From: a virus
Taxonomy: Duplodnaviria > Heunggongvirae > Uroviricota > Caudoviricetes
Strand: one strand, 5' to 3'
Length of the DNA: 26,780 nucleotides
Virus record (IMG/VR): IMGVR_UViG_2713897161_000007
Numbering within the stretch: the first letter of the stretch is position 1; every line of letters begins with the position of its first letter. Under the pieces are notes generated by a model. It made no database searches. It was not told where the DNA came from and was given only the letters and a program-made list of their open reading frames with translations. This document shows, in pieces, positions 9,817 to 26,231 of the stretch. The translations under genes were made by a program, and so were the position numbers.

Positions 9817-9840
9817 AAGCGCCGATAAGGCGCTTTTTTT
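9817..9840 (+). terminator. Rho-independent terminator
   Basis: Stem AAGCGCC/GGCGCTT with loop GATA, then TTTTTTT. Confidence 0.6.
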
Positions 9841-10293: not shown

Positions 10294-11340
10294 TCAGGAT
10301 GTGGGCTGGGTATCTAGCAGTGCGTAAGGGTTAAAGCGGATCACCTCTTCGCCAAGCCAGTCATTGATGTGCTTCATGGCCTCCATGACGGGCATCAGCT
10401 CGTTAATTGCGTAAACCCGCGCGGCCTTCTCCACATCACCAAACGCACTTTTTTCGCCCGGCATCGCCCCCATCAGTTGCGGCGGAACGCGGTGCGCAGC
10501 CAGCACATCATCACGGGATGCCGCCTTAACATTCATGAACTCATCCTTTGCAGTGATCTGCTGGAACGGCAAAATTTGCACACCTTCTTTGCCCCCGTTG
10601 GGCGCATGGATGAGTACGTTTTTAAACGCACCACCACCACGCGCGCCCTGTAACGTTTCTTTCAGGGAGTCCATGCTTTCGCGGTTTACCTGCGCTGCAC
10701 CGATGTAGATGATGCACCCGGCGTGGGATCCGTTGTCGTAGTACAGTTTTCTGAACATGTCCGCCGAATGAGAAAGGCTGGCCGAGAGTAATGCGCCAAG
10801 ATATTCCGGCATGCCGTAGATTTCCTGGTTAATATCCGGATTCATCAGGTGGCACACTTTGCCAGGGCGAAACTGGAACGCGTCCTTGCCATCCTGCACA
10901 TACCACCATGATTCAAGATCGCTTCCGCGTCGCATGTATTTCGCCAGGGCGTGCCGTAATTTAAGCGGTTCGCCGAGCATATTGCTTCTAAGCTCAAGGA
11001 ATGCGTTACCGAACACAAACCAGTCCAGCGCCAGCGCCGAGAAATCCTGCCGGGAAAGCAGCGGGTGCGGGATGTAGCAACCGAGTAATACATTGCGCTT
11101 AAAGTAAAGCGCAGACTGATGCCAGGACGTTTGCCGGGCTGCTCTTGCCAGACCGTACCAGTCCACCGGGGTTTCATACCACCGTCCGTTATCAGCACAG
11201 TACATATTGTCCAGCAGGTCATGCCCGGTCAGGCGATAAGGACCATCAAATGTGAATGCACTGAGCGATGATTCTTTCCTGAGCGCATCAGCGAGATCAA
11301 TGCGTGAACTCATGCGCACTTTTTTATTTTTTCTGCTCAT
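10294..11340 (-). CDS. Q: Portal protein, P2 gpQ homologue
   Basis: 348-aa ORF immediately downstream of terminase with overlapping stop/start; size and position match P2 Q. Confidence 0.85.
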   Translation of the reverse strand: MSRKNKKVRMSSRIDLADALRKESSLSAFTFDGPYRLTGHDLLDNMYCADNGRWYETPVDWYGLARAARQTSWHQSALYFKRNVLLGCYIPHPLLSRQDFSALALDWFVFGNAFLELRSNMLGEPLKLRHALAKYMRRGSDLESWWYVQDGKDAFQFRPGKVCHLMNPDINQEIYGMPEYLGALLSASLSHSADMFRKLYYDNGSHAGCIIYIGAAQVNRESMDSLKETLQGARGGGAFKNVLIHAPNGGKEGVQILPFQQITAKDEFMNVKAASRDDVLAAHRVPPQLMGAMPGEKSAFGDVEKAARVYAINELMPVMEAMKHINDWLGEEVIRFNPYALLDTQPTS

Positions 11341-13091
11341 CAGAACTCCATAACCGTGAAACGCTCGTTTTCTCCTTCGCCGCCAATCGGTTCGTTAATG
11401 ACAGCAAGCATGGTTGCCCACGCAAGGTCGCCGTGGCTGATCCCCCTCGCGCGGTCCGTTTCGTAAGTGATAAAGCCGCCCGGTGTTTTCACCTTACGCA
11501 CGGCGTTAAAGGCCGCGACCAGCTCGCGTTCGGCGCGATCGTATTCCCACCGCCCGGCACGCATTATTTGCAGCATTTTCAGTACCAGCGACCGTTTTGA
11601 TGACAGCGTGAAGGTGTACGGAATAGCAGCAGGGAAAAACCGTTTCACTATCTGATAAACAGCCTCCCCGTTCCCGCCCGTCACATCAATGCCGATGTGT
11701 TCCACGTTGTAGCGATACGTGAACTCTTCAATGACTCTGGCCTGTTCTTCAAACTCCAGCCCCTGAACGCGTCGCGTCTCCACCGTTCGAAAACGGCCAC
11801 CAAGAACAGCCGGAGGAACCACCACGGACACAGCGCCGCTGTCGCCGTTGCCACTACTGCCGTTTGCGTCATACCCAATCCATACCGGACGATTCCCCAT
11901 CGGGCGGGGAGCAAAAGGTTTCCAGTCTTTCCAGTCGTCGTATCCGTCAACACCGCAGCCAATCAGGATATTCAGGTTAAATGCCGATTCCCCTTCGCGG
12001 ACAAACTCACACATATAGAGATTGAGGAACTCGTCTTCGGTGTTTTCATCACGAATTTCGTCGATATCGGTGTGTTTCCAGCCGTGATTGACCACATCTT
12101 CCAGCGTGACAATTTGCCGCCACGTCCGGTCAGGGCAGATAAGCCCGTTATGCAGAGTTTTCCAGTCCACAGAAAAACGCTGGCGTTTATGCGTGGCCTT
12201 TTTCTCGTTCCAGCGGTCGCCGTTCCAGTAGGCGTATGCCTCGTGCGTTTCGGTGGATGGCGTGGAGAAGTAGGTGCGCCGCAGTCCGCTGAGGGTTGCC
12301 ATAGCGCCAGCCACCTTGCGCAGTTCAGCAAAGCGACTGACCCAGAAAAATTCATCAAAATAAAAATTGCCCGTATAGGACTGTGCCGACGCAGCAGAAG
12401 TGCCGAGAAAATGCAGCTCTGCGCCGTTGGAGAGGATGATTTTATCGCCCCCTTTCAGCTCCACATCAACTTCAGCCGCGGCCTTCTGAATAATGCTTTT
12501 AAACTGGAACGCCTGACGACGCGACGCAGACAAAAAAATCTGGTTACGCTGGTAAGGTTGCGCCACATCGTCACGCAGCGCCATCAGCAGAGCTTCCTGT
12601 GCAAAATACCAGGTCGCCCCAATCTGTCGGGATTTCAGGATCATCCTGTTACGTATCCCGGCTTCCCTGCAAAGGGTCAGGGAGTCAAACCAGCCCCGCT
12701 GATGCCACTCCAGCCTGCTGATGATTTTTTCCCGCAGTGCGGCAATCTGTTCCGGCGTGAAATGATTTTTGAGTTTTTTCGCCCGGCCTTTCTTTCCTGT
12801 GACCGTCGCATCCGGCTGGCCATCATGCAGTTTTTTAAGCTGCCGGGTCAGCAGGTCTATTTCCTTAAAGTCACCGCCTGTTTTATTCTGTTTTTCAGTA
12901 AGCTGGATGAGGCGCGCATCGATGGACTGCGTGACACGCTGCACGGGTGGCGTTTCATCCCACTGGTCGCGTTTTTTCCACGCATAAATCGTGTTCGGGT
13001 TTATTCCCATCAGACGTGATATTTCTGCGGGCGGATAACCCTGCCAGTAAAGTTGCCGCGCACGCTGGCGCACAAAAGCGTCCTGAATCAT
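11340..13091 (-). CDS. P: Terminase large (ATPase) subunit, P2 gpP homologue
   Basis: 583-aa ORF, close to P2 gpP length. Divergent from O, as in P2. Confidence 0.9.
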   Translation of the reverse strand: MIQDAFVRQRARQLYWQGYPPAEISRLMGINPNTIYAWKKRDQWDETPPVQRVTQSIDARLIQLTEKQNKTGGDFKEIDLLTRQLKKLHDGQPDATVTGKKGRAKKLKNHFTPEQIAALREKIISRLEWHQRGWFDSLTLCREAGIRNRMILKSRQIGATWYFAQEALLMALRDDVAQPYQRNQIFLSASRRQAFQFKSIIQKAAAEVDVELKGGDKIILSNGAELHFLGTSAASAQSYTGNFYFDEFFWVSRFAELRKVAGAMATLSGLRRTYFSTPSTETHEAYAYWNGDRWNEKKATHKRQRFSVDWKTLHNGLICPDRTWRQIVTLEDVVNHGWKHTDIDEIRDENTEDEFLNLYMCEFVREGESAFNLNILIGCGVDGYDDWKDWKPFAPRPMGNRPVWIGYDANGSSGNGDSGAVSVVVPPAVLGGRFRTVETRRVQGLEFEEQARVIEEFTYRYNVEHIGIDVTGGNGEAVYQIVKRFFPAAIPYTFTLSSKRSLVLKMLQIMRAGRWEYDRAERELVAAFNAVRKVKTPGGFITYETDRARGISHGDLAWATMLAVINEPIGGEGENERFTVMEF

Positions 13092-13245
13092 TGCTCCCCC
13101 TGAGTAATTACAGGAAGATTACCCGCGCGCGAAACTGTTCTCCTTAACCCCCTGTTCTGGCCGTTTTCTTACAACAAAATCCCTTTGTATCAGCCTGTTA
13201 CGCTTTGCCATCATGACTGAAGAACCAGTCAGAGGGGCAAAAACT

Positions 13246-14082
13246 ATGGCTAATGAAAAAAAGACATCCCGCAAAAAGTTTCGCGTGGCTGTCTCCGGAT
13301 CAACTGTTGATGGCCGTGAAATCAGTCCGGTGCATCTGCGTGAAGCCGCCGAGAACTTCAACCCGGATGTTTACGCTGCCCGCGTGAACGTTGAGCACTA
13401 TCTCTCGCCATGCCCGTCAAGCGAATTTTCCGCAATGGGCGATGTCACCGCGCTGAGTACGGAAGATATTACGGAAGGCCCGCTGGCCGGACGTACTGCG
13501 CTGTATGCAGAAATCGAACCGACCGAGCGCATGAAGCAGCTTGTCGCTGACGGCAAGAAAATCTATTCCAGTATCGAACTGCACCCGCAGTTCTCCGTTA
13601 ACGGGCGTGCCTATCTGGTCGGGCTGGCGATGACCGACACCCCGGCAAGCCTGGGCACTGAGCGCCTGAAATTCACGGCACAGCAGCGTCAGGCGGTGAT
13701 GACGTTCAACAGTATCCAGGGTGAAGCACCGCTTATCTCCGAAGCCATCGAGTCTGAAATCATCGAAATGGCAGAACAACGCCAGGAAGAAGGCACCCAG
13801 TGGTTTAACCGCGTAATGGGGATTATTGGTCGTGGCCGCAAAGCGGATGACGCCAGTTTCTCCCGTATTCAGGAAGCGGTGGAAGGCGTTGCAACATCAC
13901 AGGCCGACATTATCGACCGTTTTAATGTGCTGGAAACCCGCCATCAGTAGGACCGCCAGAAAATCACGTCACTGACCACAGAGCTGACAGCACTGAAGGA
14001 AAAACTGCGCACGCAGGACGGCGATCCGCAGAACCGCTTCACCGCAACGGGCGCAGCCTCCGACCAGCTGGCTGACTTCTGA
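13246..14082 (+). pseudogene. O: Capsid scaffold/protease gene (P2 gpO homologue) interrupted by an in-frame TAG at 13948-13950; frame continues 43 codons to TGA at 14080-14082
   Basis: N-terminus MANEKKTSRKKFRVAVSGSTVDGREIS matches the gpO pattern. After ...ETRHQ-TAG the same frame reads DRQKITSLTTELTALKEKLRTQ...QLADF with no internal ATG. Summed length is close to P2 gpO. Confidence 0.7.
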
Positions 14083-14105
14083 TAAGACAAAGGAGCAAAT
14101 TTTTT

Positions 14106-14744
14106 ATGAATCTGGTGATGTCAGATATTACCCGCAACAAGCTGGGGTGCTATATGGCGCAGCAGGCGTCGCTTAACAATATCCCGGTATCTGCACTGGT
14201 ATCGCGATTTACCGTGGAACCCGCGGTGCAGCAGCGTTTTGAAAACGCCTCAAAGGAAAGTACCGAATTTACGAAAAGAATTAACGTGATCGGCGTGACC
14301 GACCAGAAAGGCGAAAAAATCCTCCTGGACACCACCGGGCCAATTGCGCGCACGAATAGCAGTTATGACGGCATCAAACGCCGTAAAACGGTTTATGACG
14401 TGGCATCAGGGGACTCGTTATTTATTTCTGAACTCGGTCCATTACCGGAAAATGTTACCTGGTTGTCGCCGTATGGAGAGTATCAGAAGTGGAACGGCAC
14501 ATCCTGGGTGAAAGATGCAGAAGCAGAAAAACTGTTTCGGATAAGGGAGGCGGAAGAAACAAAAAACAGCCTGATGCAGGTAGCCAGCGAGCATATTGCG
14601 CCACTTCAGGATGCCGTAGATTTGGATATTGCAACGGAGGAAGAGGCATCGTTACTGGCTGCATGGAAGACATACCGGGTATTGTTGAATCGTGTTAATA
14701 CAGCGGTAGCAGCGGATGTTGAGTGGCCAGTCGCCCCACAATAA
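14106..14744 (+). CDS. Chimeric ORF: N-terminal ~90 aa of major capsid protein (gpN-like) fused in frame to the C-terminal ~120 aa of a tail fibre assembly protein (Tfa/gpG-like)
   Basis: Residues ~30-90 ([10 protein letters not shown]...[17 protein letters not shown]) match the P2 gpN N-terminus as remembered. Residues 94-212 ([23 protein letters not shown]...[11 protein letters not shown]...EWPVAP) match lambda/P2 Tfa C-termini. Junction near 14370-14385. Confidence 0.7.
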
Positions 14745-14780
14745 AGAGAAAAAGCCATCGATTGAAATATAGATGGCTTT
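14745..14780. terminator. Hairpin between convergent genes; T-rich on the minus strand (terminator for the acetyltransferase gene)
   Basis: Stem AAGCCATC (14752-14759) / GATGGCTT (14772-14779); minus-strand reading is followed by TTTTTCTCTTT. Confidence 0.5.
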
Positions 14781-14787
14781 ATGTACT

Positions 14788-15393
14788 CTATTTATACAAT
14801 ACAACACCGCTCTTTTTAGTTATATATGTGCAGTTCGATGGTATATCTTTATTTATAAAAGACATTGCACCTATTTTTACATTATCCCCAATTTTACGTG
14901 ATAATCCAATGATGCAACAATTAGCTCCGATATCAACGTTACTACCAATTTTTACTCTTGAACCAGGCATGTCACCATCTATCTGTCCAATGGTAGTATT
15001 CTGTCGTAACACCAGATTTTCACCAGCATCAACAGCAAAATGAACAACAATTCCAGCATGATGGGGAATTGTTAACCCTTTTCCAATATTTGCGCCCAAT
15101 CCAATTTCACAACCAAATTTGTTAATTATTTTACTGTTTAACTTTTTGGCTGCTTTCTTATGTAATTTATTACCATTAATATACATTTCGTTAGCCAACC
15201 GCCACCAGAAAAGGAAATTCCGGTTACGCTGTTTTTTCTCTCTTAAAAGCCTCCAGATATCCATACGTTTCCGCCGAATTACTTCATATTTCCAGAAGTT
15301 TTTTAAATTAGTAGAGTCCCCAAATAAAACAAAGTGAATTGCCATTAAGTAAGACAGCACGATAATCTCCTTAATTATTATTTCAGACCACAC
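14788..15393 (-). CDS. Hexapeptide-repeat acetyltransferase, serine O-acetyltransferase (CysE/WcaB-like) family
   Basis: 201-aa ORF with left-handed beta-helix hexapeptide repeats (IGANIGKG, IGSNVDIGAN, IGDNVKIGAM) and a CysE-like segment before them. AT-rich. Start may be GTG at 15360 after AAGGAG. Confidence 0.8.
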   Translation of the reverse strand: MWSEIIIKEIIVLSYLMAIHFVLFGDSTNLKNFWKYEVIRRKRMDIWRLLREKKQRNRNFLFWWRLANEMYINGNKLHKKAAKKLNSKIINKFGCEIGLGANIGKGLTIPHHAGIVVHFAVDAGENLVLRQNTTIGQIDGDMPGSRVKIGSNVDIGANCCIIGLSRKIGDNVKIGAMSFINKDIPSNCTYITKKSGVVLYK

Positions 15394-15516
15394 ATATTAT
15401 AAGGTTAAGAGATTATAAAATCCTGTTGTTTGTTATTCAAAAACAATTTTCTGAGAAGGACATACAACAGCAAGTCGCCAGTCACCTTCATCAGGAAATT
15501 GGCGACATACGTTAAA

Positions 15517-16011
15517 TCAGAGCAGCCCCTTAACTGAGCTGGTCGCGCTATTAAGGGATGATGTCACCTTATCTTTGAAGCCGGACAACATATCGCTGAA
15601 CGATGAGGATTGCAGGCGCTCCCGCAAATCCTCATCACAGCGTTCAAGAGTCAGTGAAAATTCTATCTTTTTCGCCTTACCGTAGCGATCAAACTCGGAG
15701 CGGGTCGTATTCGTTTCGGTCAGGACATACATGCCGTAAATCTGCCCGACGCCATCAATCAGAGGCCAGGGCCGTCCTGTATACGCCTGCGTGGTCAGCA
15801 GAGACAGCGACACTTCGCCACCTGTAATTTCAGGATAAAGCACACCAGAAAGAACGATGCGATCATCACCTGCACCGATATACTGCCAGCTTGCTGAACG
15901 GTTAACGCGTTCATTTTTCACATGCCGCCAGCTTTTGTTTTGCTGTAACTGCTGATGCGGCAGCGTGCGCAGCTCAAAAACAAACATGCCATAGATCATC
16001 ATCATGGCCAT
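15517..16011 (-). CDS. U: Tail protein, P2 gpU homologue
   Basis: 164-aa ORF downstream of the tape measure gene; N-terminus MMMIYGMFVFELRTLPHQQLQ resembles gpU. Hairpin plus T-rich tract follows on the minus strand. Confidence 0.8.
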   Translation of the reverse strand: MAMMMIYGMFVFELRTLPHQQLQQNKSWRHVKNERVNRSASWQYIGAGDDRIVLSGVLYPEITGGEVSLSLLTTQAYTGRPWPLIDGVGQIYGMYVLTETNTTRSEFDRYGKAKKIEFSLTLERCDEDLRERLQSSSFSDMLSGFKDKVTSSLNSATSSVKGLL

Positions 16012-16017
16012 GACTCC

Positions 16018-18861
16018 TCAATCTTTATCGTAAAAACTGCCACGCCCGGCACGGGCGCGCCGTTCCATTTCTGCCCTGACCATTTCACCGACCAGTTTCG
16101 CCAGTTCGCGGGGATTCTGCGTAACAACGTTATGCAGATGAACATGAATTTCACCGCCAAATCTGGAGACAGCAGGCTCCCGATTACGGGAAGCTGCAGG
16201 AACTGATGCCACTGGCGATCGTATGGCCTCCGCCACCGGGCGGGAGCTGGCCGCAACAACAGGGACCAGCGCCGGAGGCAGCGGAGCCGGGACTACGGGT
16301 GTGATATTAATTGCGGGGGCAGGCTTACTGACCTGCGCAATCTTCCGCTCCTGCCACTCCCCACGAACAGCAAGTGCGCGGGGCAGGTTCTTAAAGACAA
16401 TATCGCCAGGGCCAATGCGTTTTTTCGTCTCATCAACCAGCTTACCTGTGTTATCAGCAATTTTGCTGAGTCTGCGTAGCGTCCCGGTATTGCTGTCTGT
16501 GAGCGGTTTGTTGTCTTTGGGTTTATCACCTCCGGTGCCATTGCCATTTTCCACAGGCTTCGGCGGATTGATTTTCGCCAGGTCCCCCTGAAGTAAGGCA
16601 ACCTTATCCTGAAGAATGGCCGCACGCTGTGCGTCTTCGATTTTCTTGCGCGCCCTTTCCGCTTCATCCGGAAGGACGCCAAGTTTTTCAAGTATCCACG
16701 CCAGCGTATCCAGTAGCATTTTTGCAGGTGTCAGAACAAGTTGTAACGCACCGCCAAGAACGTTACCGAATATCTCGCCAGCACTGGTACATTTATCCAG
16801 CGTTTCCTTGCTGGACTCCATCGGTGACAGCAGCGATTTAAACCAGTTAAACACCTGGCTGATCCCGCTTCCGATTGCGTCAAAAACAGGGCCAAACCGT
16901 TCAAAGGTTTCACGCAACGGGTTCAGCCTTTCCATAATCCCGCTGAACACCCCGGCAAAAAATGCCCTGATGGGATCCCAGTATTTCCAGATAAGGACGG
17001 CAGCTCCGGCAAGCGCAGCCACGATAAGACCAACCGGACTGAACAGCGCCCCGATAGCGCCTCCCAGTAAAGAAACGGAACCCGTCACCATTCCCCATAG
17101 TGCTGGCAGGACCCTGACAGCATTCATTGATCCGGTCAGGAGAGAAAAACCAAGACGCAGTTTTGCCAGCGGACCAGCAAGCACACCAATAGCCAGCGAC
17201 AACGAGCCAACCGTTGCAGTCATTGCCAGCAACGCACCGCCTGCTATCAGTAGCTGGCGCGTCAGTGCCGGATGGGCCTGCGCCAGCGCCGTCACCCTTG
17301 ATACCACCCGCGTGAGCCACTGCGTGACAGAACGCAGCGGACCGTCAATCAGATCTGCAATGCGGATGCGCAACCCTTCCCATGCACTGCCGAGTGATTT
17401 CAGATCGCCGTCAAGGTTGTTGGCCATAACCTTTGCTGTGCGTTCAGCCTCACCGCGCGCGCCTTCAAGTTCTTTTCTCAGTTTGGGTAAGGAACCGTCA
17501 CCCACTGCATCAACGAGCGCCATAAACGATGTGAAAGCCTCTTCTCCGGCAATGTCCTTAAAGAACGATACCCGGTCAACTTCCCCGTATTTGCGGGTGG
17601 CTTTATAAAGGTCGGCCAGCACATCCTCCATCGGGCGCATTTTACCCCCGGCATCCGAGACGGACACGCCCAGCTCTTTCAGAGCTTCTGCCGCCGCCTT
17701 TGGCGGTGATGCCAGACGAGCCAGGCTGGCACGCATTGCCGTCCCGGCATCACTCCCTCTGATGCCCATATTCGCCAGCACACCAGCCATCGCTGCGGCC
17801 TGCTCCAGCGATATTCCCAGCTTACCCGCCACCGGACCTGCATATTTCATGGTTTCGCCCAGTGCGCGAAGGTCAGTGTTGGTACGGGTAAACGCTGCGG
17901 TGAGTGTGTCACCGACCCGGTCCATCTGGTCAGCAGAAAGGCCGAACTGCGTCAGGATATTTGAGCCAATATCTGCCGTCTCGCCGAGATCCATACCGCC
18001 AGCCGTTGCCATGCTCAGCACTCCGGGAAGCGCAGCCTGAATGGCCTGCGGTGTGAAGCCTGCCATTGCAAGAAATGCCTGCCCACTGGCGGCATCGCCT
18101 GCGGTGAACTGCGTTTCAGAGCCAAGTTTTAACGCCTGCTCACGCAGCGCCTTAAACTGCGGGCTGTTCTGGTCGATTCGCGTCAGCGCCTGAACGCGGG
18201 ACATCTCTTTGCCGAACCCGATCGCGGGCTGCAAAAAACGCCCGGCAGCATAGCCGCCCGCCGCTGCCGCACCAATTGCCAGCGCACCACCTGTTTTCAG
18301 TTTTCCCGCGGTTTCCTGCGCGCGCGAATACCACTCACGCGCCCGCGTTACACGCGCAAGCGCCTGCCGTTCGCGTTCAAGCTGGTTGTTGTACTGTTCG
18401 GTGCGTCTGATGGCCTGCTGGATGGTGTTATCGCTGCCTGTCAGGGAAATGCCGTGGCGTTTCAGCTCTCCGCCAAGCTCCCGCATTTTCTGAATTTCCC
18501 GTGTGCGCGATTCATTCAGGCGTTCAAGCCGGGTGCTTAACTGCTGCATCAGCTTTTGTTGTTTTTCGCTGAGCACTGTACCCGTGCGTTGTAACTGATT
18601 AAGGGCGTTAAGCTGGCGTCGTGCTTTCACGATACCCGCATCCGCTTTACTGACAGCGTCGCGGGCGCGCTCAAATGAACGAGCCTGACGCTCGAGATTT
18701 TTAATCGCCCCCTGCGTTCGCTGGATGGAGTCACCAAACTGCCCCATCAGGCGGCGGGCGTTTTCGGCAGGCCGGGTCAGCCTGTCAACGGCGCTGAAAG
18801 CGACCCGGATATCAAGAGTCTTCATTGTCTGCATTCCCGCTGCGAAGTGCCGCCCGCTCAC
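16018..18861 (-). CDS. T: Tail tape measure protein, P2 gpT homologue
   Basis: 947-aa ORF, coiled-coil-rich N-half and hydrophobic Gly/Ala-rich central segments. Start is GTG at 18861 or ATG at 18834/18825. Confidence 0.9.
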   Translation of the reverse strand: MSGRHFAAGMQTMKTLDIRVAFSAVDRLTRPAENARRLMGQFGDSIQRTQGAIKNLERQARSFERARDAVSKADAGIVKARRQLNALNQLQRTGTVLSEKQQKLMQQLSTRLERLNESRTREIQKMRELGGELKRHGISLTGSDNTIQQAIRRTEQYNNQLERERQALARVTRAREWYSRAQETAGKLKTGGALAIGAAAAGGYAAGRFLQPAIGFGKEMSRVQALTRIDQNSPQFKALREQALKLGSETQFTAGDAASGQAFLAMAGFTPQAIQAALPGVLSMATAGGMDLGETADIGSNILTQFGLSADQMDRVGDTLTAAFTRTNTDLRALGETMKYAGPVAGKLGISLEQAAAMAGVLANMGIRGSDAGTAMRASLARLASPPKAAAEALKELGVSVSDAGGKMRPMEDVLADLYKATRKYGEVDRVSFFKDIAGEEAFTSFMALVDAVGDGSLPKLRKELEGARGEAERTAKVMANNLDGDLKSLGSAWEGLRIRIADLIDGPLRSVTQWLTRVVSRVTALAQAHPALTRQLLIAGGALLAMTATVGSLSLAIGVLAGPLAKLRLGFSLLTGSMNAVRVLPALWGMVTGSVSLLGGAIGALFSPVGLIVAALAGAAVLIWKYWDPIRAFFAGVFSGIMERLNPLRETFERFGPVFDAIGSGISQVFNWFKSLLSPMESSKETLDKCTSAGEIFGNVLGGALQLVLTPAKMLLDTLAWILEKLGVLPDEAERARKKIEDAQRAAILQDKVALLQGDLAKINPPKPVENGNGTGGDKPKDNKPLTDSNTGTLRRLSKIADNTGKLVDETKKRIGPGDIVFKNLPRALAVRGEWQERKIAQVSKPAPAINITPVVPAPLPPALVPVVAASSRPVAEAIRSPVASVPAASRNREPAVSRFGGEIHVHLHNVVTQNPRELAKLVGEMVRAEMERRARAGRGSFYDKD

Positions 18862-19341
18862 GCCAGCTAACCACTTCGCCGGGCGTCATCATGAAGATTT
18901 CGGCGGGCGACCAGTTAAAAATAACGGCAATATCTGCCACAAAGTCTTCTATGTGCTCAAAGCACACAACCGTGATCAGGCTTCCGTCGCCTGTTCGTTC
19001 TTCCCGCCAGAGTCCGCACCGCTCAAAAAATTTACGGCAACCACACATAACTGAATAAAGTCACGGGATGCCATTTTTTTGATCGTCACTTCATCCAGTC
19101 GCGGTGATGTCACGCGTGACAGCAGCGTAAACATGGATTCCGCTTTCAGATTCAGCACATCAGACAGCGACAAATCTCGCAGAGATCCAGCCTGCTCAAT
19201 AGCCCCGGTGATCTCCACATACGTGATTTTTTCGCCGCCTCGCTCAATTGGTTGGGTAAGTTTTACACCACGCTCACTGGTTTCTTTCACAGTGTCAGCA
19301 ACTACCGTGTTTTCGGTATCGATGTTTTTCGTCTCTTTCAT
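18812..19341 (-). CDS. E+E' fusion product made by programmed -1 frameshift; E' portion reads ...FFERCGLWREERTG... and ends at 18812, overlapping the T start
   Basis: The -1 frame is open from the slippery site to 18812 and closed just upstream (stop at 19061-19063). Same architecture as the P2 E/E' frameshift. Confidence 0.7.
18976..19341 (-). CDS. E: Tail assembly chaperone, P2 gpE homologue
   Basis: 121-aa ORF with AGGAG RBS; contains slippery heptamer T_TTT_TTG near its 3' end. Confidence 0.75.
   Translation of the reverse strand: MKETKNIDTENTVVADTVKETSERGVKLTQPIERGGEKITYVEITGAIEQAGSLRDLSLSDVLNLKAESMFTLLSRVTSPRLDEVTIKKMASRDFIQLCVVAVNFLSGADSGGKNEQATEA
19024..19030 (-). promoter_or_regulatory. 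Slippery heptamer T_TTT_TTG for the E/E' -1 frameshift
   Basis: Plus-strand CAAAAAA at 19024-19030; in the E frame the codons read AAT TTT TTG AGC (N F L S). Confidence 0.7.
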
Positions 19342-19395
19342 CAGGAAACTCCTTTCAGTCAGAGGCGACGCACTGCGCCGCCTGCATATTACTTA

Positions 19396-19908
19396 TCAGC
19401 CAAGCCCGAGCGCGGAACGGATGCGATCGGGCACAATGTCCTTGCCGTCCTTCCGGTAAATGAAGTTCAGCAGGTCAATCTCCCACAACGGGCGATCGTT
19501 AACACTCAGCTTGTAGTAGGTGTTTTTAATGGCGTAAGTGTGTGATGTGGCTTCGCCCTGTTTGGCTTCCCCCATATCAATTTCCGTCACACGTCCGCGC
19601 ATTTCGACTTCATACAGGTCGCTTTCTGCATCGGTGTAATATTCACCCGCAAAACGCAGCAGCGTGCCGTCAATCGTGCCGCCATACTTAAGGAACAGCT
19701 CACGAACTGCGCCCCCCATGACAAAGCTCGCATCAAGCGCGGAGTCGTCCAGACCGAGATCAATACTTACCGCACCCATCATGCCACCACCCCGGTAGCT
19801 GTCGGTTTTGCGCGTCAGCTTAGGCAGAGTGACGGACGTCACCTTACCCACTTCGTTTTCACCATCCACAAACAGCGTAAAAAAGCGAAGATGTTTTGGT
19901 ACAGCCAT
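19396..19908 (-). CDS. FII: Tail tube protein, P2 gpFII homologue
   Basis: 170-aa ORF immediately downstream of the sheath gene; length and position match gpFII. Confidence 0.9.
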   Translation of the reverse strand: MAVPKHLRFFTLFVDGENEVGKVTSVTLPKLTRKTDSYRGGGMMGAVSIDLGLDDSALDASFVMGGAVRELFLKYGGTIDGTLLRFAGEYYTDAESDLYEVEMRGRVTEIDMGEAKQGEATSHTYAIKNTYYKLSVNDRPLWEIDLLNFIYRKDGKDIVPDRIRSALGLG

Positions 19909-21092
19909 CAGGCACCTCCCAGCACCGCAAATGCGGGTTCAAAGTATTCATCAGTAAACGTCTGGTAAAGCTCCATGTCTTCCAGTGGCGGAACGGGCGT
20001 ATATTTGTAGCGAATACGCACACGCCCCTGACGTAAATCCGTGGTGCTGTTATCCACCACGTCATACCAGCACTCCGCGCCAATCAGTTTCCCGGCAGTA
20101 ACCAGCGAATCCAGTTTTGCCCTGATGGCACTGATAACATCCTTCACGTTCGCAGGCGTCAGTGGACTGTCGATGGTTTCAAACTGCGCTTCCGCAATTG
20201 AATCAGCCAGCACCTGTGCGGTTCGGGTATACACCTCAAAGATGTAGGCGTTCGTTTCCGGTGTGCGGTTGCCCCAGAAGCGGAACCCGTTGCGACGAAT
20301 AATGGTCGTGATTTCTTTGTTGTTGAGGCTGTTGGCATCACTGTCTTCGGCCTGCAACGACCAGAAAACATGCCTGGACATCCCCAGCACATTTTTAACA
20401 GGAACGTTGGACAGCGATTTGTGCCAGCCCTGCTCATGGTCAATGTACGCACGAAGGCCGCACGCATAGGCAGGCGCGGGGAACGTTTCGTTTTTGCCAC
20501 TTTTCGGGTTGTAGGCGATGAAGTCCGGCCATAAGAGCATCACCTCACGTTCGTTGAATTTCTGGCGGTAGGTAATTGCCTCAGCCATCGTGTTACAGTC
20601 ATGACATGAGGCATACACAAACGCGCGCAGTTTACCCGCAATCACGCACAGGGATTTTGTCACCGCCTCCGTGTCCAGCTCCGGCGCGGCCAGAATACGC
20701 GGACGGTATCCGATGCTTTCATCCTGCTCTGCAACAAGCAGCGCATACATCCCCGTATAGCTGCCGTCAGATTCAGAACCACCGATAACCAGTTGATCCT
20801 GCGTCTTACCGCCTTCTTCTTTGTGTTCAGCCACGCGAACGACGATCACTTTTGTGCTCACCTGGTCTGCAATAGCCTTAAGCGCACGATAAAGCGTCCC
20901 CGTAGTCCCGCATTTTCCCAGCACGTCATTGACGCGGGTCAGCAGTGTGGGCTTGTTCAGCGGGAACAGCTCCGCGTCCGCATCATCCGCCGTTGCCACG
21001 ATACCGATAACACTGGAATCAACATCATTAATCGCTGTTACCAGGTCGGTACTTTCCGTAACACGGGCACCATGAAAACGAGTTTCACTCAT
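19908..21092 (-). CDS. FI: Contractile tail sheath protein, P2 gpFI homologue
   Basis: 394-aa ORF. Motifs match gpFI: FPLNKP, YRQ.F..RE, WPDF, GWHK.LSNV, IRR.GFRFWGNRT, YTPVPPLE. Confidence 0.9.
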   Translation of the reverse strand: MSETRFHGARVTESTDLVTAINDVDSSVIGIVATADDADAELFPLNKPTLLTRVNDVLGKCGTTGTLYRALKAIADQVSTKVIVVRVAEHKEEGGKTQDQLVIGGSESDGSYTGMYALLVAEQDESIGYRPRILAAPELDTEAVTKSLCVIAGKLRAFVYASCHDCNTMAEAITYRQKFNEREVMLLWPDFIAYNPKSGKNETFPAPAYACGLRAYIDHEQGWHKSLSNVPVKNVLGMSRHVFWSLQAEDSDANSLNNKEITTIIRRNGFRFWGNRTPETNAYIFEVYTRTAQVLADSIAEAQFETIDSPLTPANVKDVISAIRAKLDSLVTAGKLIGAECWYDVVDNSTTDLRQGRVRIRYKYTPVPPLEDMELYQTFTDEYFEPAFAVLGGA

Positions 21093-21249
21093 AGCTTCAG
21101 CCCCTTGTATCCGTTAAATGATTCGGCAACAATCATCACCCACCACGCGCGTAATCTCACCCCTGCGCCGTTCTCCCGCCACGGCGACAACAAAAAGCAG
21201 TAACCCCCTATGCACGCACATGCGACCATGCCGCACAGGGAGGGAACAG

Positions 21250-22350
21250 ATGACCGATACCACCATGCAATTGCTCAGTCAGAGCACAGACCCCGTGAAA
21301 ATGCCGGATTTTGATATTCTCGCGGAGGGGGAAACACTGTCCGGCGTGGCAGAGCGCCTGATGAGCCTGTCACTGACCGACAACCGGGGATTTGAAGCGG
21401 ACCTGCTCACCATCACGCTGGATGATGCGGATGGTCAGTTGCAGCTACCGCCACGGGGCGCGCGCCTGACGGTTCTCATTGGCTGGAAAGGAGAACCGCT
21501 GACAGAAAAAGGCACTTACATTGTTGATGAAATCGCTCACGAAGGACCGCCGGACAGGCTGACTGTTTCAGCCAGAAGCGCAGATTTTCGGGATGAATTT
21601 AACGTTAAACGTGAGGTGTCCTGGCATGATGTGACCGTTGAGCGCGTGGTATCCGCCATCGCTCATCGGTACGGTCTGAAACCACAAATCAGCGAAATGC
21701 TGATGGATATTGAAATCGACCACGCCGACCAGACCGAAGAAAGCGACATGTCCTTCCTTACGCGCATGGCGGAAATGCTGGGCGCAATCACTACGGTAAA
21801 AAGCAGTAATCTGTTATTCATCATGCCAGGCGGTGGCGTGAACGCACAGGGCCAGCCGTTGCCATCGTTCGCCATCACGCGCAGCAGTGGCGATCGCCAT
21901 CAGTTCCGCATTGCTGACCGCGAAGCGTATACGGGGGTACGTGCTTACTGGCTTGATCTTAATTACGGGAAAAAGAAAAAAGTCAGCGTGAAACGCCGCA
22001 AACCGAAAAAGGAGAAAAGCAGCAGCCGTGAAGGTGACTATATGGAAGGTGCGGAAGGCAACGTGTTTGTGTTACGCAAGACTTATCAGAACGAGCAGGC
22101 AGCAAGACGTGCAGCGGCGGCAAAGTGGCAGCAGCTACAACGCGGAGCCGCATCATTCTCCATCACGCTGGCGCGTGGACGCGCAGAACTCTATCCCGAA
22201 ATGCATGGCACGGTGACAGGCTTCAAAAGTGACATCGATAATCAGGACTGGATTATTGCAAAAGCCGAGCACACCATTGATAACAGCGGCTTTACCACAC
22301 AGCTTGAGCTTGAAGCAAAAATCCCGGAATGGATAGCAGAAACAGAATGA
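21250..22350 (+). CDS. D: Tail protein, P2 gpD homologue
   Basis: ATG at 21250 preceded by GGGAGGGAA. Motifs LTLTDNRGFEAD, DRLT.SARSADFR, ESWHD, EGDYMEG, AKW..LQRG, NSGFTT.LELE match gpD. Confidence 0.85.
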   Translation: MTDTTMQLLSQSTDPVKMPDFDILAEGETLSGVAERLMSLSLTDNRGFEADLLTITLDDADGQLQLPPRGARLTVLIGWKGEPLTEKGTYIVDEIAHEGPPDRLTVSARSADFRDEFNVKREVSWHDVTVERVVSAIAHRYGLKPQISEMLMDIEIDHADQTEESDMSFLTRMAEMLGAITTVKSSNLLFIMPGGGVNAQGQPLPSFAITRSSGDRHQFRIADREAYTGVRAYWLDLNYGKKKKVSVKRRKPKKEKSSSREGDYMEGAEGNVFVLRKTYQNEQAARRAAAAKWQQLQRGAASFSITLARGRAELYPEMHGTVTGFKSDIDNQDWIIAKAEHTIDNSGFTTQLELEAKIPEWIAETE

Positions 22351-22749
22351 GCAAATTAGATGTATTGACTCAAACCAGAACTGACACACTCACAGCACAG
22401 TGCCAGACCCAATCTGGCAGCCCGCTTTGTGCCTAGAGCAGGTGTTGCTTATGTAACAGTTAATCCACGGATAGTGGTCATGAATGCTGGTTGAAGTTGT
22501 ATTGCCATGAGTGGTCAATTAGGGACTCACTTATTATCGCGTGCTCACCATTGATGGGTAAGATCATGCATTTCGGCTACTGTACTTCGCGAATCCTCCG
22601 CACACAGGCAACACCTGATTTAAGAACAGAGGGAGATGATGACGCAAGGAAGATTTATTATCGTGCATGTGGCAGATGATCTTTTAGCTGCCGGAGTGAT
22701 AAATTACACCTATTTTCGATAAGTGTTTTTGTTATAGAACATTAATTTC

Positions 22750-23889
22750 GTGGGAAACAATAAAGTGAAATTAGGAAGAAATGATAAGTGCTGGTGTAAT
22801 TCAGGACTTAAGTATAAAAAGTGCCATCTTGGTCGAGATCGTGAAACTCCGGTATCCAAAGCCGAGGCACTGAAATTTTCAAAGTCTCTCTCGCAGAGAA
22901 AGGCATGTTATGCGCCAGCATCCATGCACGAAGATTGTGATAAACGCATCGTTCAGGCGCATACGATATCTAAGAGCAGTAGCCTTAAGGCGATCGCCGA
23001 CTCCAGCAATCACGTCATGGGGGTGATAATGAACTTAGCAAGCCTGATGAGAAACAACGGAAAATGGCTTCCCGAGAAGATCGGTATCAATCAGGCATCC
23101 ACTTTTACAGGATTTTGTGCAGTTCATGACAGAATCTTATTTTCATGCCTAGAGAACGAAAAATTTACAGGCACGGACGAGCAGTGCTTTGCCTTAATGT
23201 TTCGTTCATTGTCTAAAGAAATTTATGCCAAAGAAGGGGGAGTGCTATCTTCTGATTTTGCTAAAAATGCCGATAAAGGAAAGCTACAAGTTGAACAGTA
23301 TTATATTCAGAAATTAATCGACCAGCACCAAAGTGGCTTAAATGCAGCAATAATTGAATTAAATAATCTTAAAACTAGCCTCGACCGCATCCTACTTAGC
23401 AGGCAATTTTCAGAAATTGAAAGTGTTATCTTCACTTTTGCAGAGCCTTTACCAATTGTAGTTTCGTCAATTCTTTCACCGGAGAGGGATTTCGATGGGA
23501 CCAAAATTCAGGATTTGAGCGATCTTACAGTGTCGGCGGAACAAGTATGTTTCAATGCTTTTTCCTGCGGAGGTAAGGGATATGTAGTGTTCAGTTGGCT
23601 GAGAACTTCAACAATTATCAGACGTTTTATACGGACACTAATTAAGATCCCAGCTAACAGGATGTTCAATACCCTTCTGTATTTTTTCTTCACAAAGGCC
23701 GAAAATACATATTCATCCCCTGAGTGGTGGGACAGGCTCAGTGATAAACAGCGAGAGAATATCGGCAACATGATTATGTCAGGGGTTGAATTTTTTGGCA
23801 TACCTACATCACAGGTTGATCATTCCGTTGATTATAACGCCGCTGCACTTGAAGAGATAACATGCAGCAACAACGAAATTTGCAGCTGA
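22750..23889 (+). CDS. SEC-C-motif protein of unknown function (N-terminal zinc-binding motif plus ~350-aa uncharacterised domain); cargo between D and ogr
   Basis: 379-aa ORF with GTG start. N-terminal LGRNDKCWCNSGLKYKKCH matches the SEC-C metal-binding motif. AT-rich, preceded by ~400 bp AT-rich non-coding DNA. Confidence 0.7.
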   Translation: MGNNKVKLGRNDKCWCNSGLKYKKCHLGRDRETPVSKAEALKFSKSLSQRKACYAPASMHEDCDKRIVQAHTISKSSSLKAIADSSNHVMGVIMNLASLMRNNGKWLPEKIGINQASTFTGFCAVHDRILFSCLENEKFTGTDEQCFALMFRSLSKEIYAKEGGVLSSDFAKNADKGKLQVEQYYIQKLIDQHQSGLNAAIIELNNLKTSLDRILLSRQFSEIESVIFTFAEPLPIVVSSILSPERDFDGTKIQDLSDLTVSAEQVCFNAFSCGGKGYVVFSWLRTSTIIRRFIRTLIKIPANRMFNTLLYFFFTKAENTYSSPEWWDRLSDKQRENIGNMIMSGVEFFGIPTSQVDHSVDYNAAALEEITCSNNEICS

Positions 23890-24178
23890 ATGTTTACATG
23901 CTGTTAGAAAAAGCGGGCTGAACAATCATTTCGGGATTGTAACAGATAAGATGGCACTGCCCGCTTGCTTCCCGATATGCACCTCAGCCAATAAACTTAT
24001 GTAAGCAACCGATTTCCATTTATGCGGAGGTTATCAAAGTTGTTGGAGTTGCGAACTTCCGCTCTTCGCACAAAGCGTACCGCTAGGTTTGATTGTATTC
24101 TGGCTGCGCAAACTGTCAGTTGGAGTCTGAGCTATTACAACTTAGAATAGCGGCAGCACCACGTTAAGGGAGGTCGCT

Positions 24179-24439
24179 ATGTTCCGTTGTCCGCTTTGTG
24201 GCGCATCTGCCCGAATCCGCACCAGTCGTCCGGAAAACGATTCAAACACTGTGCGGCAAAAGTATTACCAGTGTAACAACCTGGAATGCGGCGTATGCTT
24301 CTCAACACTGGAAGCTTTCCATAAATTCACATCAAAACACGCCTCCGGCGTTCACTCTTCGGAAGGTATCCCGTGGCATGAGCTGCCAGCTTCACACAGG
24401 GGAAACAATCAGATGAGTTTGCCTTTACCTCAGAATTAA
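24179..24439 (+). CDS. ogr: Ogr/Delta-family zinc-finger late-gene activator
   Basis: MFRCPLCGASARIRTSR...YYQCNNLECGVCFST matches the P2 Ogr zinc-finger pattern. GGGAGG RBS 6 nt upstream. Confidence 0.85.
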   Translation: MFRCPLCGASARIRTSRPENDSNTVRQKYYQCNNLECGVCFSTLEAFHKFTSKHASGVHSSEGIPWHELPASHRGNNQMSLPLPQN

Positions 24440-24629
24440 CAGGCAGAATTGCCGGAGTAACAAAAAAACGATAGATTACCCGCGGGTGCCTTTCGGCTGA
24501 TGGTCGGAGGAATACCCGAAGGCCGGATGTGGAAAGACCCCGGAAAACATTTCTGTTTAACCGAGGCCCTAACATATCTACCTTAAGCAAGTGATAGGTT
24601 AGCGCCTCTCCAACAAAGGAGCAAGCGCT

Positions 24630-24770
24630 ATGTCGCAAAAATCGCTTACAGCCATCACGTTCTGCGTGACGGTAATCCTCATCATCTGGATGCTACACGG
24701 TTCGCTGTGTGAAATACGGATGAGCTTCTGGGGAGCGGAGTTTGCGGCGTTCTTACAGTGTAAGCAGTAA
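24630..24770 (+). CDS. hok: Hok/Gef-family small membrane toxin (type I toxin-antitoxin toxin)
   Basis: 46-aa ORF MSQKSLTAITFCVTVILIIWMLHGSLCEIRMSFWGAEFAAFLQCKQ. Hydrophobic N-half plus SLCEIR and E[FV]AAF motifs of Hok. AAGGAG RBS. Not in the ORF track (short). Confidence 0.75.
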   Translation: MSQKSLTAITFCVTVILIIWMLHGSLCEIRMSFWGAEFAAFLQCKQ

Positions 24771-24856
24771 GGAAACCGCGACGGGGGAGCAATCCCCCGT
24801 CAATCGGTTGCTAAGGTTGGCTGAAGTGGCACCCTATCTCACAGACATGAACAACA

Positions 24857-24890
24857 AACCCGCAGCGTAAGAACTGCGGGTTTTCTTTTT
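24857..24890 (+). terminator. Rho-independent terminator downstream of hok
   Basis: Stem AACCCGCAG/CTGCGGGTT with loop, then TTTTCTTTTT. Confidence 0.7.
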
Positions 24891-24958
24891 GGAACAATCA
24901 CTAGCTAGTGTACCGTTAACGGCACATAATGCTCGCACAACAAACCTGTTAAAAGAGA

Positions 24959-25240
24959 TTACTCAGCATTCTCCTGCTTCCATTGCCGGATCATTTCATC
25001 GGTAACATCACCCTCATAACATACCACGTCATACCCTCCATTACGGCTATATGCACTGCGTCCACCACATCTACTACCATTCCTTGCATGATTATAAGGA
25101 CACGCACAATTGCCTGGATAAGATTCAATGGATTCTTTAATTATTTCTTTTTTGATCTGAGCATCAGACTTTCCTGTTGCTGCATATCCACTAAAAGATA
25201 CTAAACAAAGGCAGATTGCCATTAATAAACCACATCGCAT
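24959..25240 (-). CDS. Small secreted Cys-rich protein of unknown function
   Basis: Longest ORF is 24959-25354, but a signal-peptide-like segment (MRCGLLMAICLCLVSFSGYAA) begins at the internal ATG at 25240. No convincing SD at any start. Confidence 0.45.
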   Translation of the reverse strand: MRCGLLMAICLCLVSFSGYAATGKSDAQIKKEIIKESIESYPGNCACPYNHARNGSRCGGRSAYSRNGGYDVVCYEGDVTDEMIRQWKQENAE

Positions 25241-25710
25241 ACCGATACACTCTATTACTAACCAATCATAGCCCACATCATAAAATCGAGATGAGGAGTA
25301 CAATACCTTTAACAAGAAGGTGTCATAACGATAATATGTCGTGCAATTCATCAAAAAAAAGATCTATATCAAAGAGATAGAACTCTTATCAGCGCTTCAG
25401 ACATCGGCATTCGAGGCAGCAGAAAAACAGTAAATCTGACGAATTTGCCTTTTCCCAAGATGTTGTCAGATTAAAAAGATAGATTAGCGCAGGTACCTGT
25501 TGGTGGATTGCAGGAGGAAAAATGAAGTCGAGTGAAAAAATCCCAGAAAAATTTTTGTTTAACAGAGGTCCTGGTTCACTATGCGAAATACGGAGGAGCT
25601 GCAGAAGAATTCTGCTTCATCCTTAGAGTTTAAACAGCACGTGCACTACCATTGTTTCTGCATATCGCCACACCATCGCCACTCTACCGCCATTGCACAA
25701 AATACAAATA

Positions 25711-25734
25711 CGAAAAAACCACCCGAAGGTGGTT
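25711..25734 (-). terminator. Rho-independent terminator of the glyW-cysT-leuZ tRNA operon
   Basis: Minus-strand reading AACCACC-TTCG-GGTGGTT followed by TTTTTT, 45 nt downstream of the tRNA-Leu 3' end. Confidence 0.6.
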
Positions 25735-25778
25735 TCACGACACTGCTTATTGCTTTGATTTTATTCTTATCTTTCCCA

Positions 25779-25865
25779 TGGTACCCGGAGCGGGACTTGA
25801 ACCCGCACAGCGCGAACGCCGAGGGATTTTAAATCCCTTGTGTCTACCGATTCCACCATCCGGGC
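25779..25865 (-). tRNA. leuZ: tRNA-Leu (anticodon UAA)
   Basis: 87-nt minus-strand sequence GCCCGGATGG...ends CCGGGTACCA; anticodon loop TTTAAAA gives UAA. Matches E. coli leuZ as remembered. Confidence 0.95.
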
Positions 25866-25877
25866 TCGGGAAGAAAG

Positions 25878-25951
25878 TGGAGGCGCGTTCCGGAGTCGAA
25901 CCGGACTAGACGGATTTGCAATCCGCTACATAACCGCTTTGTTAACGCGCC
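25878..25951 (-). tRNA. cysT: tRNA-Cys (anticodon GCA)
   Basis: 74-nt minus-strand sequence GGCGCGTTAACAAAGCGG...CGCCTCCA; anticodon GCA. Confidence 0.95.
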
Positions 25952-26004
25952 AAATTCTTCAGGCCTTTCAGCCAGACATCCGCTGACGCCGATGTCTTTT
26001 AAAC

Positions 26005-26080
<76 letters not shown>

Positions 26081-26231
26081 ATTCATCAAGCAATCAGTTA
26101 ATCACTTGATTTTATTATCGTCTGGCAATCAGTGCCGCCGTTCGATGCGTTGCATTCTACTTACCTGGCGCGATGAGTCAACGATATTTTTCACCACTTT
26201 TGATCGTTTGCTGAAAATTGCGCCGAAACGA

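Follow-up and report, generated by a model that had tools for sequence, protein, structure and literature searches.

The window analysed here, a viral DNA stretch of 26,780 nucleotides taken at its full length, carries a defective copy of a P88-like (Xuanwuvirus-type) prophage of the P2 family in which the tail genes FI to U run away from gene D. We put the probability at about 90% that this divergent FI/D order is the fixed, inherited order of the P88-like branch, that it stems from one inversion in the ancestor of the branch and that the defects of this copy are unrelated to the orientation. Judging from sequence, one dyad would most likely serve both late promoters. The divergence is accordingly not to be reported as a rearrangement, as a sign of decay or as a possible misassembly.

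Layout of the tail block and its relatives

PHROGs and Pfam matches place U, T, E', E, FII and FI on the minus strand at 15517–21092 and D on the plus strand at 21250–22350, with the start of D located upstream of FI on the opposite strand across a gap of 157 bp (21093–21249). The leftward F operon begins with the tail sheath gene FI (19908–21092; Pfam sheath domains; PHROG 23, 1.7e-127) and continues with the tail tube gene FII (19396–19908; PHROG 55, 8e-60), which is annotated in relatives as "major tail tube protein", a gpE-like tail assembly chaperone (18976–19341; PHROG 103, 3.2e-35) and its frameshift partner E' of the GpE family (18812–18967; Pfam Phage_P2_GpE, 1.7e-12; annotated in the O26 prophage). 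The tape measure gene T follows at 16018–18861 (PHROG 28, 2.8e-215; annotated in P88 and the O26 prophage), its start in the annotation of relatives being the position equivalent to 18825, and the last gene encodes a gpU-like tail protein (15517–16011; Pfam Phage_P2_GpU, 5.5e-39; PHROG 76). A stem-loop just 3' of the U stop, followed by a U-rich tract (15474–15506, minus strand), is a candidate terminator of the operon; the minus-strand RNA fold of 15440–15545 has an energy of −31.4 kcal/mol (z = −2.4), and a terminator consensus scan missed the stem-loop because its loop is longer than 8 nt. Facing the other way are D, encoding the baseplate hub or late control D protein (Pfam Phage_GPD; 98.6% identical to D of P88), and, at 24179–24439 on the plus strand, an Ogr/Delta-type zinc-finger late activator (Pfam Ogr_Delta, 5.1e-14; annotated in the O26 prophage), which is the presumed binder of the dyads described below.

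The window holds the Peduoviridae gene set (Q portal, P terminase, O scaffold, N capsid, FI, FII, E/E', T, U, D, Ogr-type activator, A and integrase) by PHROGs and Pfam, N being present as a 5' remnant only, owing to a deletion, and its proteins are 31–49% identical to their P2 counterparts. In P2, FI, FII, E, E', T, U, D and ogr lie on one strand and are annotated as one operon from pF. The seven F-operon genes recur in the window in unchanged internal order, with the same E/E' pair, but protein identity to P2 is only 42–49%. Whereas the U stop and the D start of P2 share position 22791, D of the window is neither co-directional with U nor immediately downstream of it; it lies outside the operon and, pointing away from FI, needs a promoter of its own. 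The sequence-only reading had described these strands, the 157-bp gap and the co-directional order of P2, and the PHROGs and Pfam matches together with the P2 annotation bear it out. It was also right that the remaining genes keep the P2 orientation, namely int (minus), A (plus), Q and P (minus), O (plus), the remnant of tfa, the tail-fibre-assembly gene (plus), and ogr (plus).

The same layout is found in close relatives. As the comparison with phage P88 shows, positions 15511–22360 of the window form one collinear alignment at 97.1% identity, and in the P88 annotation D is on the strand opposite to that of U, T, E', E, FII and FI. P88 is a functional phage, both inducible and lytic (PMC5285337, PMC6456863). 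Four blocks are shared with P88 at 96.5–97.3% identity, while the window is without about 11 kb and carries different cargo. More generally, P88 (Xuanwuvirus, Peduoviridae), the Citrobacter phage PhiSM and the intact leuZ-cysT-glyW prophage of E. coli O26/O111/O103 are 96–100% identical to the window over shared regions and have the same order and orientation of U-T-E'-E-FII-FI against D and ogr, and the same 157-bp gap; the window differs in being without N through tfa and in having a nonsense codon in O. A genus at the level of Xuanwuvirus is defined by 70% nucleotide identity over the full length, following ICTV practice. The layout trait of Xuanwuvirus, U-T-E-FII-FI divergent from D, is present in the window. 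The prophage is integrated beside leuZ-cysT-glyW-pgsA. E. coli O26:H11 carries an intact prophage at this tRNA site whose genes are arranged identically and which shows 3 SNPs over 7978 bp.

Of 5426 complete E. coli genomes, 1358, or about a quarter, are collinear with the window across the FI/D junction. In a survey of species-representative loci, in which the best 80 of 307 were considered, FI and D are divergent in all 48 loci whose D is at least 60% identical to that of the window, spanning about 20 genera of Enterobacterales, and co-directional in all 21 loci that have FI and a P2-type D (47–53% identical to D of the window). All of these loci are from Enterobacterales except one contig labelled Vagococcus, which is probably contamination. 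Klebsiella phage 3LV2017 (Reginaelenavirus), which we count as a functional phage, is also divergent; it and related Enterobacterales prophages share the layout and the conserved gap architecture, with D 60–78% identical, but belong to other genera and hosts, have gaps of 122–198 bp and differ in neighbouring cargo. The divergent layout is compatible with full phage function. Co-directional like P2 are Fels-2, a Pseudomonas Citexvirus and Burkholderia phage Musica. An assignment of the inverted block to Fels-2 and SopE-phi was rejected, the Fels-2 genome being co-directional and P2-like.

These observations bear on two ways in which the layout could be peculiar to this copy. According to the sequence-only reading, the block inverted by illegitimate recombination, which would be a recent event in the decay of this prophage. 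Decay is indeed evident from the 11.4-kb deletion and the O nonsense codon, and no inverted repeat flanks the block among the 25 longest of 144 short pairs, both of which fit such an event. However, intact and functional relatives have the same layout base for base, as does a quarter of the complete E. coli genomes, it recurs in about 20 genera, and both junctions lie inside single collinear alignments, so that we give a private inversion hardly any credence. What stands of that reading is the inversion of the pF-FI..U segment relative to P2; as an event in this prophage, or a sign of its decay, it falls by the refuting test that it had itself set, because P88, 3LV2017 and the O26:H11 prophage are intact relatives with the same divergent genes. 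Misassembly at one or both junctions, which the sequence-only reading had also raised, is not borne out and is of negligible probability: we found no point in its support, the FI/D junction is collinear in the 1358 complete genomes and in several independently sequenced phage genomes, and many complete genomes match the junction of the U side with an acetyltransferase gene at 100% identity.

The divergence is already known in the sense that it is visible in annotated public genomes, and no paper was found that discusses the arrangement; papers on P88, the Citrobacter prophage, P2 diversity and hotspots and the CFT073 P2-like prophage do not take up F-block orientation. P2 is the wrong synteny reference for the P88-like lineage, and about one in four E. 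coli genomes will likewise be flagged by scans templated on P2. FI/D orientation cleanly splits two deep branches of enterobacterial P2-like phages.

Origin of the inversion and lesions of this copy

The P2 gene order is ancestral, because the relatives in Pseudomonas and Burkholderia have it. In trees of D, FI and U rooted on the co-directional Pseudomonas and Burkholderia phages, the divergent loci are monophyletic in each case, and therefore a single ancient inversion accounts for them; the trees are simple neighbour-joining trees without support values. Illegitimate recombination may have been the mechanism of this ancient inversion.

An alternative form of the ancient event is that a module from sheath to U arrived from another phage, replaced the original and was inserted backwards. 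Modular exchange is common in phages, and on its left the block borders on a slot known to vary (PMC3573123). Nevertheless, divergence from P2 is of the same extent inside and outside the inverted segment, at 42–49% identity (Q 47%, P 44%, FI 45%, FII 42%, U 46%, D 49%), one and the same clade emerges from the FI, U and D trees, and pF has retained the spacing of P2, 82.5 bp between dyad and ATG and 46 bp to the −10 hexamer. We consider the replacement improbable and an inversion of the resident block the better account.

The block could also be a programmed segment flipped by an invertase of the Gin/Cin/Hin type. P88 and Fels-2 have a DNA invertase between the tail-fibre genes and the F block, and that of P88 lies directly beside U. 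Neither the window nor the intact O26 prophage contains an invertase gene, however, and among the 25 longest of 144 short pairs there is no inverted repeat joining 15394–15516 to 21093–21249. Furthermore, a single orientation is seen in all of about 50 clade loci, and 1358 E. coli genomes are collinear across the junction. The orientation of the invertase with respect to the fibre genes is the same in Fels-2, which is co-directional, and in P88, which is divergent, and the invertase therefore falls outside the inverted segment; in both phages its target is the neighbouring fibre segment. A programmed switch is extremely unlikely, and the sequence-only reading, which had found no obvious boundary repeats and no invertase gene in the window, had rightly dismissed one. 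The invertase as the origin of the ancient inversion was likewise rejected, given its place outside the segment in constant orientation and the lack of repeats at the segment ends among the 25 longest pairs.

Beside U, P88 carries the invertase and its invertible fibre segment, whereas a tfa gene and an acetyltransferase gene are found there in the window and in the O26 prophage. The acetyltransferase gene (14788–15393, minus strand) marks the left boundary of the block; it is a Hexapeptide, serine O-acetyltransferase-like accessory gene with a weak Pfam Hexapep match and is annotated as serine O-acetyltransferase in E. coli. It occupies the variable slot that separates the tail-fibre genes from U, has a GC content of about 38% and has its own sigma-70-like promoter at 15440–15412 on the minus strand. 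A PADLOC scan of the cargo genes returned only short matches at the level of SEC-C motifs or HTH domains, with no assignment to a defence system.

Two lesions are private to this copy, the 11.4-kb deletion and the nonsense codon in the scaffold gene O, and both are unrelated to the orientation. By blastn against the intact prophage, window positions 9844–14386 correspond to 4091–8633 and 14383–26780 to 20001–32396, placing the deletion junction at a GTAA microhomology (14383–14386) with the loss of about 11.4 kb, from N through tfa. The resulting junction of truncated N and tfa is absent from all 5426 complete E. coli genomes, and the source strain is therefore not among them. N is the major capsid gene, and the N-to-tfa deletion is the lesion that disables this copy.

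The FI–D gap as a putative bidirectional late promoter

The FI–D intergenic region (21093–21249) is a putative bidirectional late promoter, with pF directed leftward and pD rightward, whose architecture is kept across 49 distinct clade sequences. The published consensus for Ogr-dependent late promoters is TGT-N12-ACA (PMC3931495). At 21172–21189, centred on 21180.5, the gap contains a dyad of the Ogr-type activator, TCT-N12-ACA (TCTCCCGCCACGGCGACA), with one mismatch to this P2 consensus. The homologous column has a site with at most one mismatch in 45 of 49 relatives and a perfect one in 27. The distance from dyad centre to the FI ATG is 88.5 bp in the window, and 82.5 bp both as the clade median and at pF of P2.

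Within the window, an exact search for TGT-N12-ACA gave 3 matches against 6.5 expected by chance, none of them in late intergenic regions; the dyads at FI/D and at P/O appear only when one mismatch is allowed, in the TCT half-site. By our own calculation a dyad with one mismatch is expected by chance about 0.65 times per 157 bp, and the case for the window dyad therefore rests on conservation.

That conservation extends to −10-like hexamers on either side. For pF, GATGAT (21132–21137, minus strand) is located 46 bp from the dyad centre, with a predicted start at about 21125, and on the FI side 48 of 49 clade sequences have an xAxxAT hexamer at a distance of exactly 46 bp, as do 17 of 24 P2-type pF regions. 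The P2 pF geometry is that of the clade, with the dyad 82–88 bp from the FI ATG and the −10 hexamer 46–47 bp from the dyad centre. For the putative D promoter, GACCAT (21224–21229, plus strand) is also 46 bp from the dyad centre, with a start predicted at about 21236 and a short D leader of about 14 nt; here 35 of 49 sequences have xAxxAT at exactly 46 bp, and 40 of 49 have it within 44–47 bp, compared with just 1 of 24 on the non-FI side in co-directional genomes. The FI/D dyad is the only site of the 26.8-kb window with such hexamers on both sides. Ogr/Delta-dependent late promoters have a TGT-N12-ACA dyad near −55, little or no −35 element and a recognisable −10; the gap fits this pattern, its dyad being one mismatch off. 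By these signals D is not orphaned: the gap has conserved promoter-like elements that face it.

From this arrangement we infer that one shared late-activator site drives both pF and a D promoter, the two starts and the activator dependence being predictions. The Ogr-like activator encoded at 24179–24439 would bind the single dyad in the 157-bp gap and, from about −55, would switch on two back-to-back late promoters. Transcription from pF would proceed leftward through FI to U and end at the stem-loop after U, and the D promoter would be read rightward. We lean towards the view that the ancient inversion was tolerated since the late-activator site is dyad-symmetric: the flip would have set the site beside D and enabled pD, and one site would today co-activate pF and pD. 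If true, this would be a second bidirectional late promoter of the clade besides pP/pO, and a marker defining a large branch of Peduoviridae. No paper was found that describes a bidirectional FI/D late promoter.

It is possible, though doubtful, that the dyad serves pF alone and that D uses an activator-independent promoter or another signal in the gap. The geometry between dyad and FI could simply be inherited from a P2-type pF, the D-side hexamer is less conserved (35 of 49), and a sigma-70 consensus scan found no promoter in the FI–D gap. That last result is uninformative, however, because it is expected for activator-dependent late promoters. Against a dyad for pF alone, a −10-like element stands on the D side at the mirror-image distance of 46 bp, where the non-FI side has one in only 1 of 24 co-directional genomes, and D encodes a structural tail protein, expressed in P2 from a late promoter. 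There is also the precedent of P2 pP/pO, where one site serves two promoters. The prediction from the comparative data as a whole is one bidirectional Ogr-dependent promoter that FI and D would share.

The likeness to pP/pO is close. In P2, one annotated activator site lies between these promoters, with starts mapped 55.5 bp to each side; the FI/D gap has one dyad between back-to-back genes and hexamers 46 bp to each side, which leads to predicted starts at about 55 bp. The two pairs differ in that the site in the gap would serve FI and D, not P and O, and is predicted from conservation, not mapped. Finally, a matching TCT-N12-ACA dyad occurs in the P/O intergenic region of the window itself (13156–13173), in the same form, GTTCT-N12-ACAACAAAA, as at FI/D, and it has −10-like hexamers at 46–47 bp on both sides.

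Orientation of the tail block in the window and its relatives

The window is a P2-family prophage adjoining tRNA-Leu/Cys/Gly and pgsA, and every gene named in the sequence-only reading was confirmed with PHROGs and Pfam. The tail genes U (15517-16011), T (16018-18861), E' (18812-18967), E (18976-19341), FII (19396-19908) and FI (19908-21092) are on the minus strand, while D (21250-22350) and an Ogr/Delta zinc-finger gene (24179-24439) are on the plus strand, with a gap of 157 bp between FI and D. In the P2 record, by contrast, FI, FII, E, E', T, U, D and ogr share one strand and are annotated as a single operon from pF, the late promoter ahead of FI. None of the 25 longest of 144 short inverted-repeat pairs in the window joins the two block boundaries, and the window contains no invertase gene. 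The earlier description of a block inverted relative to D and to P2, lacking boundary repeats and an invertase, is therefore accurate.

The inversion had also been interpreted as an event of this prophage, with misassembly at the junctions as the alternative. Compared by megablast with sequenced phages, 13000-23000 yields a single collinear alignment of 15511-22360 to Escherichia phage P88 at 97.1% identity, with comparable matches to a dozen related phage records, and the P88 annotation places D on the opposite strand to U, T, E', E, FII and FI, as in the window. P88, which was isolated through induction, is lytic on E. coli, and spontaneous activity is documented for its relative PhiSM (PMC5285337; PMC6456863). 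Among complete E. coli genomes, 14383-23000 is 100% identical to prophages of many O26, O111 and O103 strains. The prophage at the same tRNA site in E. coli O26:H11 strain FWSEC0001 (the O26 prophage) is complete from the portal gene to the tail fibre and has exactly the layout of the window, namely tfa (+), acetyltransferase (-), U to FI (-), D (+) and ogr (+); here the two differ by 3 SNPs across 7978 bp. Of 5426 complete E. coli genomes, 1358 match a 751-bp probe spanning the FI/D junction collinearly. On these sequence comparisons, misassembly can be excluded as the source of the arrangement, since the junction is collinear in P88 and in those genomes; so can an inversion private to this prophage, since intact or functional relatives share the divergent FI and D. 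The arrangement does set the window apart from P2, yet it is the normal organisation of a common and functional phage lineage that annotated public genomes already represent. Our literature search found no paper that comments on it.

The spread of the arrangement was surveyed in one genome per bacterial species, searched with an alignment of the window and P2 D proteins; FI, FII, T, U, D and ogr were placed by tblastn in the best 80 of 307 loci. Within these 80, all 48 loci with a D at least 60% identical to that of the window have U-T-FII-FI on the opposite strand directly upstream of D, with an FI-D gap of 122-198 bp, and all 21 FI-containing loci with a P2-type D (47-53% identical) are co-directional. 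The 48 divergent loci come from hosts such as Salmonella, Klebsiella, Enterobacter, Citrobacter, Serratia, Erwinia, Pantoea, Kosakonia, Pectobacterium, Brenneria, Edwardsiella, Providencia, Morganella, Xenorhabdus, Photorhabdus, Hafnia and Yersinia. Klebsiella phage 3LV2017 (Reginaelenavirus) shares the divergent order of the window, whereas the co-directional order is seen in P2, Fels-2, a Pseudomonas Citexvirus and Burkholderia phage Musica. When D, FI and U were each placed in neighbour-joining trees rooted on the Pseudomonas and Burkholderia phages, all divergent loci grouped as a single clade, and no co-directional genome fell within it. Divergence from P2 is even for genes inside and outside the flipped segment (protein identities of 47% for Q, 44% for P, 45% for FI, 42% for FII, 46% for U and 49% for D). 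The simplest reading of these data is one in-place inversion of pF-FI through U in the clade ancestor, with the P2 order ancestral. This enterobacterial prophage also turns up, as locus L004, on a 226-kb contig labelled Vagococcus sp. WN89Y, a Firmicute, where its D is 98% identical to that of the window; the assembly is probably contaminated or mislabelled.

A predicted bidirectional late promoter

P2 late promoters require Ogr, which binds TGT-N12-ACA centred near -55 (PMC3931495; P2 annotation). A dyad with one mismatch to this site, TCT-N12-ACA, lies in the FI-D gap at 21172-21189; the same variant is found in the P/O gap at 13156-13173, and both read GTTCT-N12-ACAACAAAA. Taken alone, a single mismatched dyad-like site means little. 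When 49 distinct FI-D gaps of the divergent clade are aligned, however, 45 have a site with no more than one mismatch at the dyad column, and 27 of these are perfect. The median distance from the dyad centre to the FI start codon is 82.5 bp in the clade, equal to that of P2 pF, and to the D start codon 71 bp.

The 49 sequences were then anchored on the dyad, ungapped, and the spacing of the hexamer xAxxAT was determined. On the FI side it is centred exactly 46 bp from the dyad in 48/49; on the D side it lies at exactly 46 bp in 35/49 and at 44-47 bp in 40/49. Of 24 co-directional genomes whose pF regions served as control, 17 have the hexamer on the FI side (P2 at 47 bp) and a single one has it on the other side, so the D-facing element is specific to the divergent clade. 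In the window the minus-strand hexamer is GATGAT (21137-21132) and the plus-strand one is GACCAT (21224-21229), and no other dyad-like site within the 26.8 kb has hexamers on both sides. From these positions, transcription is predicted to begin near 21125 and 21236, in both cases some 55 bp away from the dyad centre. The divergent P2 late promoters pP and pO are built alike, with one annotated activator site and starts 55.5 bp either side, although those starts are mapped and ours predicted. On the basis of the conserved dyad, the hexamers on both sides and the pP/pO design, we propose that two late promoters share a single Ogr-type site in the FI-D gap, from which pF would be driven leftward and a D promoter rightward. 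This bidirectional promoter, predicted from conservation, is the sole mildly new element of the finding.

At the alignment column occupied by TGT-N12-ACA in other clade members, two Providencia loci (L030, L036) have TCTC-N10-GAGA; the element is still a dyad, and its different half-sites may reflect a co-evolved change of activator specificity. A perfect TGT-N12-ACA at 22724-22741, 9 bp upstream of the start codon of a SEC-C-motif gene, is probably fortuitous, being too near for the -55 geometry in a window with 3 perfect matches against 6.5 expected by chance.

Lesions particular to this copy

Compared with the intact O26 prophage, the window lacks about 11.4 kb; the deletion begins near codon 93 of capsid gene N and stops midway through the tail-fibre assembly gene. 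A 4-bp microhomology, GTAA (14383-14386), marks where the ends meet, and their joining creates an in-frame fusion ORF (N'::tfa', 14106-14744) of the first ~93 N codons and the C-terminal half of the tail-fibre assembly gene; this junction occurs in 0 of 5426 complete E. coli genomes. A C-to-T change at 13948, a second inactivating lesion, converts Gln235 of scaffold/protease gene O (13246-14082) to a TAG stop. D and the tail block are intact, but the prophage has lost its baseplate, fibre and lysis genes along with most head genes and is therefore incapable of making particles. As judged from sequence, what is truly abnormal in the window is the 11.4-kb deletion together with the O nonsense change, rather than the block orientation.

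Block boundaries and cargo

On the U side, P88 homology stops 6 bp past the U stop codon, and immediately beyond U there is a stem-loop with a U-rich tract after it. The slot beside U is a variable cargo position of P2-like phages, between the fibre genes and the sheath block (PMC3573123). P88 has an invertase and an invertible fibre segment there, whereas the window and the O26 prophage have a low-GC (~38%) hexapeptide acetyltransferase-like gene (14788-15393, minus strand) with a sigma-70-like promoter site (15440-15412, minus strand). The invertase was considered as the cause of the block orientation and rejected: it lies outside the segment, in the same orientation in Fels-2 and P88, is missing from many clade members, and no clade member has the other block orientation. 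The tfa and acetyltransferase pair is ~92-94% identical to a segment of the unrelated Escherichia phages JL22 and Ro157c2YLVW, a sequence similarity that suggests cassette exchange between phage types.

Between D and ogr, the window carries a low-GC (~41%) gene (22750-23889, plus strand) for a 379-aa product, named 'YecA family' in RefSeq, whose sole recognisable feature is an N-terminal SEC-C motif; it belongs to no PHROG family, and PADLOC gave no convincing match. The position between D and ogr is empty in P88 and so counts as a third cargo slot in the lineage. Close to the prophage end, immediately after ogr, comes a Hok/Gef-family toxin gene (24630-24770, plus strand), which P88 and the O26 prophage share. 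Downstream of replication gene A lie ParM-like segregation/partition genes (7899-8858, plus strand, and the next gene), which carry that annotation in P88 and the O26 prophage and are unusual cargo for an integrating P2-like phage. Finally, nothing in P88 or the O26 prophage corresponds to 9175-9843, between the partition genes and the portal gene; this stretch is the other variable cargo slot known in P2-like phages.
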